Shown: positions 4,477 to 10,029 of the stretch, piece by piece
Layout of the letters: each line of letters starts with the position of its first letter
Position numbering within the stretch: position 1 is the stretch's first letter
IMG/VR virus record: IMGVR_UViG_3300024346_000008
Location: 1-64,000 of that record
Length of the DNA: 64,000 bases
Source: a virus
Strand: one strand, 5' to 3'
Program-made: the position numbers and the translations under genes
Notes under the pieces: model-generated
Told to the model about the DNA's origin: nothing
Seen by the model: the letters and a program-made list of their open reading frames with translations, nothing else
Database searches by the model: none

Positions 4477-5667
4477 GTGACTAAGGTCAAGAATACGCAG
4501 GTAGAAATCGTGGTGGCTTTGAATGATGCATCGATGCCAATAAATCAGTTTGGTGATATGGTTGACTTGCCAGGGCCCAAGATTCGTCACCTGCGTAAAA
4601 ATGGTGGGTGTTATCGTATGATTACCACAAAGACGGGATCGACGCAGTTGCGTCACGCAGAAATGAGTGTATTTGATGCACTTGCAAAGAATGCAGTTCC
4701 GTTGGATGTAACCGATAATCGTTCGGACGAAGTGCATGAGGATATTGAAAAGTATCTTACCGACAGTGTTGCTCTTCGTCCTGCAAATCTTATTCTTTCC
4801 GATTTGAAGTGGAAGTATCTGATGCGCTCGGTCGTTCGTGGTAAGAACATTATGATGACAGGCCCTTCGGGATGTGGTAAGACATTGGCTGTGCAGAGTG
4901 TGGCAAAGGCACTAAATGGCCGTCCATTCTTTTACTTCAACCTTGGTGCAACGACTGACCCTCGTTCTACGCTGATTGGTAACACGCATTATAGTAAGGA
5001 AAAGGGAACCTTTGTGGCCGACGCACTGTTCTGTCGGGCCATTCAGTCAGAAAATTCCATTATTCTTATTGACGAGTTGACGCGAGCAAATCCTGATGCG
5101 TGGAATATTCTGATTACGGTTCTTGATGAGAATCAGCGATATCTTCGCATTGATGAAAAGCCGGATACGCCGACGATTAAGGTAGCAAAGGGTGTGACCT
5201 TCATTGCCACGGCAAACATTGGTAGTGAATACACCGCCACCCGTGTCCTTGACCGCGCCATGATGGACCGCTTTACGGCAATCGTTGAGATGGAACCACT
5301 GTCGGTTGAGAACGAACTGAAGCTCATTAACATGACATACCCCAATGTTCCAGAGGCAACCGCGCGAGCCATTGCAGAAATTGCTGGTAACACTCGTTCT
5401 CAAGTTCGTTCGGATGACCCAAAGGTTACTACTTCAATTTCTAGTCGTCTCACGGTAGAAATGGCCGGATTGATTTATGACGGATTTTCTCTGACCGAAG
5501 CAGCAGAAGTGTGTATCTATCCATTCTTCTCGGATGCAGGTGGGGCAGATTCGGAACGGACATACATGAAGCAGTTGGTTCAGAAGTATATTCCCAATGA
5601 TCTGAACGCTGGGAATGTGTGGGACACCGCGGTTGGCGGTAAGGCCACTTTCAACCCGACATTCTAA
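4477..5667 (+). CDS. MoxR/CobS/CbbQ-type AAA+ ATPase
   Basis: Walker A GPSGCGKT, Walker B ILIDE, ATAN sensor I, LDRAMMDRF. Confidence 0.9.
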   Translation: MTKVKNTQVEIVVALNDASMPINQFGDMVDLPGPKIRHLRKNGGCYRMITTKTGSTQLRHAEMSVFDALAKNAVPLDVTDNRSDEVHEDIEKYLTDSVALRPANLILSDLKWKYLMRSVVRGKNIMMTGPSGCGKTLAVQSVAKALNGRPFFYFNLGATTDPRSTLIGNTHYSKEKGTFVADALFCRAIQSENSIILIDELTRANPDAWNILITVLDENQRYLRIDEKPDTPTIKVAKGVTFIATANIGSEYTATRVLDRAMMDRFTAIVEMEPLSVENELKLINMTYPNVPEATARAIAEIAGNTRSQVRSDDPKVTTSISSRLTVEMAGLIYDGFSLTEAAEVCIYPFFSDAGGADSERTYMKQLVQKYIPNDLNAGNVWDTAVGGKATFNPTF

Positions 5668-5843
5668 TGGGAAAGACATATAAGGACCAGAGAAAGTGGG
5701 ATAAGCGCCGCTCGACCCGCGAAGAGGATGTTCCAAAGGATGAACGCCGGAAGAACGGCAGGCATCGTTCCGTCGAAGATGTTCCATTGGATGAAGAGCC
5801 ATTACATCCCTATGAACATTTAGATTATGAATATGATCTTTAA
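5667..5843 (+). CDS. 58-aa charged hypothetical protein
   Basis: ORF MGKTYKDQRK... overlapping the ATPase stop (TAATG). Confidence 0.55.
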   Translation: MGKTYKDQRKWDKRRSTREEDVPKDERRKNGRHRSVEDVPLDEEPLHPYEHLDYEYDL

Positions 5844-5888
5844 TCAGTAAAGTATATAGTTATTAAATGGTTATTAAAAACTGGGGGG

Positions 5889-5953
5889 TTGACAAACGAC
5901 CTACACTAGTGTATATTACAAGAGTAGTGAAGAACGACACGTTATTTGACAAC
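5889..5953 (+). promoter_or_regulatory. sigma70-type promoter plus boxA-like element of the main tRNA operon
   Basis: TTGACA-17-TATATT; GTTATTTGACAAC at 5941-5953. Confidence 0.75.
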
Positions 5954-5957
5954 TAAA

Positions 5958-6018
5958 GGGGGTTACTTTCCGAGTTCCCTCGCACAAAACTCCGACGTTT
6001 GGTTCACGTAACGAACCA
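5958..6018 (+). ncRNA. pseudoknot-plus-hairpin RNA motif, copy 1
   Basis: covaries with the copy at 9335-9396. Confidence 0.7.
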
Positions 6019-6022
6019 CTTT

Positions 6023-6055
6023 GCCACCTTCGTCTATCGGTTAGGACGTTTTTTC
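6023..6055 (+). pseudogene. 5' remnant of a tRNA-Glu
   Basis: GCCACCT-TC-GTCTATCGGTTAGGAC is a typical Glu acceptor strand and D arm; sequence then collapses. Confidence 0.7.
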
Positions 6056-6098
6056 AAAGTATCATACTATTTATAGTAAATGATTAACTGAGAAATAT

Positions 6099-6701
6099 AT
6101 GTCAAAACTAGGTGGATATAGAGAAGGTTCGGGAAGAAGTAAATCGGGATATTATAACGGTATTTACTGCGGGTCTACTTATGAACTATGTTGGGTGATA
6201 TACGCACTTGACACTCAAGTAAAATTTGATAGATTTAAAGGAATCTTACGAGGTAATAATATATCATATGTTCCTGACTTTCTCTTGAAGGATGGCAAAA
6301 CAATAATAGAATTAAAAGGATATGAATCACAAGATAGAGTTAATGAAAAAACAAAATTGGCAGAAAGTCTTGGATATACCGTGGTTGTCTTACGAAAAGA
6401 CGATTTAAAAGATGTGTTTGCGTATGTTGCTAATAAATTTGGAACTAAAAAGTTTCATACGTTATATGATGGTTATAAACCAAAATATACTTACACTTGT
6501 TCAAATTGTGGTAACTCATTGACCAGAGACAATCAGTTAAAATCAACCAATGTGTTTTGTTCAAGAGTTTGCGCAGGCCTAGGCAATAGACCGCACACGA
6601 TTTTGTCTAAGCAAAAAGTATTAGATAGGGCAAAAAGATTCTACGAAAAAAATAAAGAATTAATTAATAAAAAACGTAGAGAAAAATATAATAGTAAATA
6701 A
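6099..6701 (+). CDS. PD-(D/E)XK endonuclease (TnsA-like) with C-terminal Zn finger
   Basis: S.YE, YVPDF, IIELKG; CSNC...FCSRVC. Confidence 0.8.
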   Translation: MSKLGGYREGSGRSKSGYYNGIYCGSTYELCWVIYALDTQVKFDRFKGILRGNNISYVPDFLLKDGKTIIELKGYESQDRVNEKTKLAESLGYTVVVLRKDDLKDVFAYVANKFGTKKFHTLYDGYKPKYTYTCSNCGNSLTRDNQLKSTNVFCSRVCAGLGNRPHTILSKQKVLDRAKRFYEKNKELINKKRREKYNSK

Positions 6702-6704
6702 TAT

Positions 6705-6776
6705 GGCGCGTTCTTCTAGCGGCTAGGAAGCTTGACTTTCACTCAAGTAAGACGGGTTCGATTCCCGTACGCGCTA
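6705..6776 (+). tRNA. tRNA-Glu(TTC)
   Basis: cloverleaf; cttga-CT TTC AC-tcaag. Confidence 0.9.
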
Positions 6777-6968
6777 CTTATCCCGTCCGTTTCTATATGT
6801 GGTAGACGTTAAACAAAAACATATTCGGTACATGAACTCCGACAATATTCATGAGTGGTTCGCACCAGCTTAGTGGTGGTAAGGGTTGGGAAAAATATTG
6901 AATAGCTAACAATATTTGGGGAACCTACTAGATACTGTGGAAAGTATCTGACAATCCCCACCCACTAT

Positions 6969-8040: not shown

Positions 8041-8111
8041 CTGATTATATGTAAACCAGTTGTTTGACATTCTTCTACTCTACGTATATACGTACACAAA
8101 AGGAGAATTAT

Positions 8112-8537
8112 ATGAAAAAACTTCCACCAAAATATTGTTTATATTGTAATATTATGTTATCGTCTGCACATGGCCATCGTAGAGGAGCAAAATATTGTAA
8201 CAACCAATGTCAGCAAGATTATCAATACAAAGTTTATATTGATAAATGGAAGCGCAGAGAAATTGACGGGTCTAAAGGACTTGGAGTATCTGCATATGTG
8301 AAACGATATCTCAGACAAAAATATAATAATAAATGTTCTAAATGTGGATGGAGTAAACCAAATCCAATAACTGGCCAAGCAATTTTAGAAGTAGACCATA
8401 TTAACGGAAACTGGAAAGACAATTCAGAAGAAAATCTAGATCTCATTTGCTGCAATTGTCATACTCTTACAATAAATTATAAAGCTTTGAATATAGGAAA
8501 CGGAAGAAATAGTTATTTGAAATCTTTGGAAACGTAG
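8112..8537 (+). CDS. HNH homing endonuclease, free-standing
   Basis: CSKCG, LEVDHINGNWKDN, NL..ICCNCH; AGGAG SD. Confidence 0.9.
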   Translation: MKKLPPKYCLYCNIMLSSAHGHRRGAKYCNNQCQQDYQYKVYIDKWKRREIDGSKGLGVSAYVKRYLRQKYNNKCSKCGWSKPNPITGQAILEVDHINGNWKDNSEENLDLICCNCHTLTINYKALNIGNGRNSYLKSLET

Positions 8538-9948: not shown

Positions 9949-10029
9949 GGTGGTGGGTGCGGGTTCGAATCCCGTTACAGCGATGCGACTTTAGCTATGC
10001 TGTATAGCTTAATGGTAGAGTGCCACATT
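9949..10029 (+). ncRNA. circularly permuted tRNA-like RNA (YrlA-like module)
   Basis: T arm precedes D arm; acceptor stem closed by a 14-nt linker. Confidence 0.75.

Follow-up and report, generated by a model that had tools for sequence, protein, structure and literature searches.

The tRNA-Glu locus and its nuclease

The window analysed here is a stretch of 64,000 nt (positions 1 to 64,000) from the 163,934-bp virus record IMGVR_UViG_3300024346_000008 of IMG/VR, which represents an uncultured lake phage. A tRNA operon starts with a sigma-70-like promoter at 5889–5917 (plus strand, as are all features of the locus), which consists of TTGACA, a 17 nt spacer and TATATT and has 11 of 12 consensus matches. 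Downstream lie a truncated tRNA-Glu gene (the stub, 6023–6048), the 5' leader of a nuclease gene (6049–6098), the free-standing nuclease gene itself (6099–6701, 200 amino acids) and a complete tRNA-Glu(TTC) gene at 6705–6777. The stub is the left end and the complete tRNA (hereafter the linked tRNA) the right end of a three-part unit, which we refer to as the cassette; the promoter is located outside of it. The adjoining right flank (CTTATCCCGTC..., 6778–6790) is also found directly 3' of tRNA-Glu in related phages with an empty site and, according to this alignment, marks the resident site.

The linked tRNA begins 3 nt past the nuclease stop codon and was identified by ARAGORN and by Rfam (56.3 bits), in agreement with the preliminary description, which had listed it as an intact, divergent tRNA-Glu(TTC). 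Its D-stem has T:A, not G:C, as pair 10:25, and neither the acceptor stem nor the anticodon stem is native to this lineage of phages. The nuclease ORF, which is single-copy in the genome, lies between the stub and the complete tRNA, outside any intron or intein. Neither a group I intron nor another Rfam family was found at 5600–6800.

The stub corresponds to tRNA positions 1–26. It is composed of the acceptor 5' strand GCCACCT, TC, the D-stem strand GTCT, the loop ATCGGTTA, GGAC and a final G, and hence contains a complete D-arm; no anticodon arm and no T arm follow. Positions 7–25 are identical (19/19) to the resident tRNA-Glu of an empty-site relative, and the local alignment score was 38 as compared with a maximum of 29 among 277 control segments. 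The stub is not called as a tRNA by ARAGORN, and the Rfam tRNA model does not give even a partial match; we identify it from its alignment and its recurrence. It also contains the genome's single occurrence of the motif TCGTCTANNGGNTAGGA. A 5' remnant reaching from 6023 to about 6055 had been proposed previously; the part up to 6048 could be confirmed, whereas the remainder is uncertain. The TTTTCAA at 6051–6057 in the leader, seen in the window's own clade, is possibly what is left of an anticodon loop after decay, and a remnant end near 6055 would agree with this; alignment of the leader to resident tRNA-Glu genes requires a 3-nt gap. The D-arm hairpin at 6031–6048, followed by TTTTTT, resembles a weak intrinsic terminator.

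The nuclease ORF is intact and contains all residues that are invariant in its family. Residues ~5–114 make up a PD-(D/E)XK catalytic domain (E29, P59-D60, E71-x-K73), which is followed by a Cys4 zinc ribbon (C134, C137, C154, C158) and a helical tail. In an alignment of 39 sequences the invariant core comprises GGYRxGSGRSKSGYY, these catalytic residues and the four Cys; with E29, D60, E71 and K73 present throughout, the family has the acidic/acidic/Lys set of PD-(D/E)XK nucleases. The modules at both termini vary between homologues (extra zinc ribbons, NUMOD3, helical tails). A conserved core combined with exchangeable modules, here putatively DNA-binding, is a typical trait of homing endonucleases.

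The AlphaFold model of the nuclease (pLDDT 87.9) agrees with this assignment. Its residues 5–114 match a RAP domain (Z 8.1), TnsA (6.8), Vsr (6.2), I-Bth0305I (6.2) and a DUF559 protein (5.8); among the matches listed, all identifiable ones at Z ≥ 5.0 are PD-(D/E)XK-type proteins. The invariant motif, the fold and the zinc ribbon bear out the earlier classification as a PD-(D/E)XK/zinc finger nuclease. Pfam DUF559 (PF04480, Vsr-like) gave a borderline hit of 20.9 bits at a cut-off of 20.6, covering residues 42–104 only, the Pfam zinc-ribbon matches were weak, and NCBIfam gave nothing meaningful. Neighbours in the ESM Atlas are unnamed viral clusters. A database search detected 765 homologues at E ≤ 1e-3, many of them ~60% identical and none with a Pfam name. 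Among 185,579 prokaryote genomes there were two matches, both in metagenome-assembled genomes (MAGs), and the phages in GenBank contain only distant homologues, in Lak megaphages. A DNA-level search retrieved only generic tRNA matches. The nuclease family is unnamed and almost entirely phage-borne.

A second cassette with the same order of stub, nuclease and tRNA is found at 1193–1782 of the window and concerns tRNA-Ser. Its nuclease matches PF11645 (9e-36), a family which does not match the Glu nuclease at E ≤ 1, and the two nucleases have no detectable sequence similarity (BLASTP E = 0.31). The same layout is indeed combined with two nuclease families, as the preliminary description had stated. 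The replacement tRNA-Ser of this cassette (1697–1783) is read by ARAGORN with the anticodon ACT; A at position 34 is unusual for a bacterial-type tRNA-Ser. The array also contains an HNH endonuclease gene (8064–8537) between tRNA-Lys and tRNA-Ile, which ends 8 nt before tRNA-Ile and has its own promoter-like site (TTGACA...TATATAC). No tRNA stub is present upstream of this gene, and the layout is therefore not general to every array nuclease. Between tRNA-Thr and tRNA-Pro, at 9951–10028, there is a sub-threshold match to YrlA (Y RNA-like; 30.6 bits, gathering score 69).

Linkage to tRNA-Glu, empty sites and cassette borders

The genomic contexts of the homologues were taken from IMG/VR, where 62 loci (designated by L-numbers) contain homologues and form 41 non-redundant clusters at 90% identity. 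In 24 clusters ARAGORN detected a same-strand tRNA-Glu(TTC) that adjoins the 3' end of the nuclease ORF or overlaps with it, and in five an antisense tRNA-Glu overlapping the ORF 3' end; three clusters have a tRNA-Glu directly upstream only. Given that Glu accounts for 10.7% of the tRNAs in these loci, a tRNA-Glu at the ORF 3' end in 29 of 41 clusters is highly significant (binomial p = 2e-20). The count rises to 31 of 41 when the two adjoining tRNA-Glu genes missed by ARAGORN (L038 and L046) are included. Consistent proximity of the homologues to tRNA-Glu had been set beforehand as a check and was found. Prevotella phage Lak-B5 has a 44% identical homologue, translated with TAG = Q, whose start lies 12 nt past a tRNA-Glu. 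Distant homologues (~40% identity) precede tRNA-Ser(TGA) instead, and one of these (L060) has a tRNA-Ser 5' stub. The tRNAs upstream of the cassette differ by locus (Leu, Pro, Asp, Met, Gly, Tyr, Thr, Gln, Ile).

In four loci (L007–L009, L021) the nuclease frame stays open across the entire tRNA-Glu gene next to it and ends 120–132 nt beyond the start of the tRNA; the C-terminal tail of the nuclease would be encoded by tRNA sequence. Further RNA features in arrays with this nuclease are a Pistol ribozyme (43.8 bits), full tmRNA genes (97 and 85 bits) and a group I intron, which scored 62 bits; these features lie at 2074–2133 and 4808–5172 in L035, 3666–4090 in L042 and 4368–4565 in L046.

In 15 of 39 loci the T4 late-promoter-like word ATAAATA is found no more than 60 nt from the predicted start, as compared with 15 of 780 random 60-mers drawn from the same loci (p = 8e-14). 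We count this among the traits of a homing endonuclease, together with the conserved core with exchanged modules and the near restriction of the family to phages. The copy in the window has no ATAAATA near the nuclease start and is probably read from the array promoter. The nuclease leader in the window contains CTATTTATA (6067–6075), in which the T4 late-promoter word TATAAATA is present as its reverse complement; such a site would point leftwards, on the minus strand. We rejected CTATTTATA as a promoter word of this phage, as its two matches in the window do not differ significantly from the 1.07 expected.

In 21 loci a 5' stub can be recognised shortly before the nuclease start; most same-strand loci have one. 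Among these 21 stubs, positions 8–13 and 22–25 are conserved to 86–100% and the acceptor part to 38–81%, as compared with 29–67% in the 15 nt that precede the stub and the 20 nt that follow it. In most loci the match to tRNA breaks off after position 25 or 26. A mirror class has the antisense tRNA-Glu overlapping the ORF 3' end and, upstream, an antisense 3' stub consisting of T-arm and acceptor; CCA is present in two of these 3' stubs. L044 is a plain split tRNA gene, in which the stub and the nuclease are followed by a fragment with T-arm and acceptor, lacking the anticodon arm. The acceptor strand of this fragment pairs 7/7 with its stub, and the locus may represent an intermediate form; we count it in favour of homing.

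We also considered a chimeric tRNA, in which the stub and the 3' strand of the linked tRNA derive from one gene. This was rejected: the stub acceptor pairs at only 1–6 of 7 positions, whereas the linked tRNA's own 5' strand pairs 7/7 with its own 3' strand. The stub of L024 is nearly complementary to the 3' strand of the linked tRNA, and the split gene of L044 is a separate case. Two further loci deserve mention. L035 (~2460–2500) has a stub of variant type (GTTT/GTAC) with a variant tRNA-Glu just before it; its nuclease may have been retargeted to a formerly resistant allele. L117 (~4640–4765) contains a tRNA-like gene, not called by ARAGORN, with a paired acceptor stem, a canonical Glu-type D-arm, a T-arm and a long insert where the anticodon arm would be expected.

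Empty sites were found via the neighbouring AAA ATPase. Relatives (L069, L074, L075/76, L088), whose ATPase is 75–77% identical to that of the window, have a single canonical tRNA-Glu and no nuclease, surrounded by the same promoter, leader and 3' flank (CTTATCCCGTC); promoter and leader of the window align with those of L069, L074 and L075. The nearest ATPase relatives (L066–68) contain no tRNAs downstream of the ATPase, and no empty site was found in a relative of more than 90% identity.

The borders of the cassette become apparent when loci from unrelated phages are compared. Between the window and L004, similarity extends from base 1 of the stub to the last base of the linked tRNA (stub 88% identical, leader 68%, first part of the ORF 76%, second part 69%, linked tRNA 87%); the flanks, including the spacer downstream of the linked tRNA, are unrelated (17–34%). 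This indicates that the stub travels with the cassette. With respect to L005, the stub is 92% identical, the leader 93% and the first 130 codons 82%, and the sequence upstream of the stub is again unrelated. The C-terminal part of the ORF and the tRNA are only 49% identical to L005, pointing to recombination inside the unit. Further, the acceptor strand of the window stub (GCCACCT) is that of the L005 stub, not that of the resident gene in the empty-site relatives (GCGGCGT), which indicates that the stub arrived as part of the cassette. The stub is more than a decaying local leftover: it is conserved family-wide and is carried along with the cassette.

These data show the properties expected of a free-standing homing element: a lone ORF, presence or absence of the nuclease in relatives, and similarity confined to the element in differing contexts. 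The three-part unit recurs in dozens of unrelated phages and has the appearance of a mobile cassette by which tRNA genes of phages are exchanged. The suggestion of a recurring layout for tRNA replacement is supported by its presence throughout the nuclease family and by the empty sites in related phages, which also supply the synteny with relatives that had been called for.

D-stem contrast and proposed explanation

The D-stem is exactly GTCT/GGAC in 15 of 24 stub candidates, three of which were later dropped as false regex matches; most of the others are one base off. In contrast, this canonical form was found in none of the 25 linked same-strand tRNAs. Their D-stems are TTCT/GGAA in the window and GATT/GATC, GTTT/GAAC, GACT/GGTC or other forms elsewhere, and the changes are compensated, so that all are still base-paired. 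The canonical bias of the stubs is no search artefact, because the detection pattern accepted variant as well as canonical D-stems. tRNA-Glu genes away from the nuclease are mostly canonical. The carrier genome contains no intact canonical tRNA-Glu, and has the canonical D-arm only in the stub.

Pattern scans of IMG/VR, which provide an unbiased sample, revealed the nuclease next to 0 of 102 canonical tRNA-Glu genes but next to 8 of 58 with the GATT/GATC stem (p = 2e-4). The idea that a variant D-stem marks the cassette had to be rejected, as the other 50 of these 58 genes have no adjoining nuclease. Four orphan 'stubs' near nuclease-free variant tRNAs were also rejected; the three inspected are tRNA-like genes that ARAGORN missed. 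Three loci hold a canonical tRNA-Glu near the nuclease: L011 and L052 kept a full canonical gene ~70–340 nt upstream of the nuclease ORF, and in L046, from a divergent clade, the nuclease is followed by a canonical-type tRNA-Glu. A canonical D-arm is therefore not sufficient for cutting, and the D-arm would be at most part of the recognition site.

We consider it likely that the unit is a free-standing homing-endonuclease cassette which targets and replaces phage tRNA-Glu genes, with the linked tRNA probably being a resistant replacement allele. From the arrangement of the sequences we infer putative DNA cleavage, a recognition site within the tRNA-Glu gene, immunity of the linked tRNA, and gene conversion. 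The mobile unit would consist of the 26-nt canonical stub, the PD-(D/E)XK/zinc-ribbon nuclease gene and a complete tRNA-Glu with a compensated D-stem. During a mixed infection, the nuclease would cut the canonical tRNA-Glu gene in the DNA of a cassette-less phage, and the break would be repaired from the cassette-bearing genome. The stub would act as left homology arm and the conserved 3' part of the linked tRNA, together with any shared flank, as right homology arm, so that the resident tRNA-Glu would be replaced by stub, nuclease and linked tRNA. The carrier would be safe, since its sole canonical D-arm is in the stub, without the rest of the site, and the linked tRNA differs in the D-stem. 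Several observations count against homing: the canonical genes near the nuclease, the variant D-stems at sites without a nuclease, and the lack of an empty site in a relative of more than 90% identity. Three loci (L036, L057, L091) have stub and nuclease but no adjacent tRNA-Glu. In addition, the type of the linked tRNA is shuffled relative to the nuclease tree, without co-descent with the catalytic domain; the resolution of this tree is poor, with good support for 9 of 40 branches.

The D-stem contrast could have another cause, namely selection against direct-repeat recombination. The cassette would then be real, but its D-stem difference unrelated to specificity: stub and linked tRNA would have diverged because recombination between them would delete the nuclease, and the target would be a different one, such as the anticodon or T arm. 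T4-like phages recombine readily, variant D-stems are common in places without any nuclease, and the canonical genes of L011, L052 and L046 would fit as well. However, 26 bases make a short repeat, and the stub D-arm is kept far better than its surroundings, a pattern that calls for selection or for the stub being renewed repeatedly from its targets. The lack of any canonical tRNA-Glu gene next to the nuclease among the 102 scanned is a further point against this explanation, which we regard as unlikely.

It is improbable that the nuclease acts on RNA instead, destroying tRNA-Glu with a canonical D-arm in the host or in a competitor while the phage supplies its own resistant tRNA-Glu, as a takeover or exclusion module without homing. 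The D-stem contrast would fit resistance of a substrate RNA equally well, some enzymes with a PD-(D/E)XK fold cut RNA, and tRNA splicing endonucleases are among the weaker fold matches (Z 4.2–4.8). The best fold matches, however, include the DNA enzymes TnsA, Vsr and I-Bth0305I, and an activity on RNA would leave unexplained the conserved stub, borders at the ends of tRNA genes, the empty sites, the split gene of L044 and the mirror class.

Still less probable is a decaying pseudogene, in which one copy of a tandem tRNA-Glu duplicate lost its 3' part to a single landing of an unrelated nuclease, now immobile or domesticated, and the recurrence reflects vertical descent. Tandem tRNAs of the same isotype do occur in these arrays (e.g. 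Ile-Ile, Lys-Lys, and Glu-Glu in L003). Yet the flanks are wholly different between loci sharing the cassette, the upstream neighbours vary, related phages have empty sites, and the D-arm of the stub is conserved where its surroundings are not. An insertion of integrase or transposase type, with the tRNA duplication as att-site or target-site duplication and the TnsA-like nuclease as part of a transposon, is the least probable case: TnsA is the second-best fold match and partial duplication of a tRNA gene is common among integrating elements, but the unit is only ~0.75 kb long with a single ORF, no integrase and no TnsB-like gene, the repeated part is the tRNA 5' end (not the 3' end) and diverged from its partner, and in most loci the stub acceptor strand is unpaired with the 3' strand of the linked tRNA.

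Returning to the homing cassette, a large nuclease family, unnamed so far and almost wholly phage-borne, is now defined together with a clear candidate target, the tRNA-Glu gene. The cassette would represent a compact route for a selfish gene into an essential small RNA gene that does not tolerate insertions: it would come with a substitute for the gene and retain part of the target as homology arm. If confirmed, this would account in part for the rapid reshuffling of phage tRNA arrays and for the diversity of their alleles. The natural pairs of candidate cut and uncut sites, a few D-stem base pairs apart, offer a new homing-endonuclease scaffold for study and engineering.

A bolder version is possible, although we hesitate to call it probable. 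The stub may be a selected working part, acting as a built-in left homology arm and possibly also as an operator of the nuclease gene, which together with the tRNA would make the cassette self-contained. At least two nuclease families (Glu and Ser) would have arrived at this design convergently in one genome, making it a general driver of tRNA turnover. If true, the cassette could enter any phage with a canonical tRNA-Glu, whatever its flanking genes, and the Glu and Ser cassettes would generally drive the turnover of tRNA alleles and an arms race of D-stems.

Comparison with known systems

A cassette of stub, nuclease and tRNA was not described in the literature searched (open-access papers and preprints). 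The closest functional analogue is SegB of phage T4. [quoted passage not shown] No stub is described for SegB, and a text search of that paper did not find the words 'remnant', 'duplication' or 'resistant' (PMC2330249). Both systems have a free-standing nuclease in a phage tRNA array (that of a T4-type phage for SegB), but the Glu nuclease is a PD-(D/E)XK and not a GIY-YIG enzyme, and its family is tied to one isotype.

The logic of intronless homing is shared with SegF and SegG of T4. In these, the nuclease gene reportedly adjoins its target, and the target of the carrier is said to be a sequence variant which is co-converted with the nuclease gene. Their targets are reportedly protein-coding genes, with no target fragment kept. 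The Glu cassette, in contrast, would replace the tRNA gene outright and has a conserved stub as one end of the unit.

Among nucleases with a PD-(D/E)XK fold, I-Ssp6803I and the PF11645 family are homing enzymes linked to tRNA genes; I-Ssp6803I, however, is encoded in a group I intron, and there is no intron at the Glu cassette. I-Bth0305I (PDB 3R3P; Z 6.2 over 81 residues, rmsd 3.9 Å) shares the Vsr-like restriction-endonuclease fold; it, too, comes from a phage, where it acts in homing, and it binds DNA through a region of its own. EDxHD homing endonucleases of the I-Bth0305I type have a conserved E-D-x-H-D catalytic signature. This signature is absent from the Glu family, whose 39-sequence alignment has the motif E...PD...ExK and no invariant His in the catalytic domain; unlike I-Bth0305I and the Vsr/DUF559-type proteins, its members have an N-terminal catalytic domain followed by a Cys4 ribbon. 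Finally, the Glu cassette differs from integrase-borne tRNA islands in that it has no integrase and that the duplicated part is a diverged 5' end of the tRNA gene instead of an identical 3' part.
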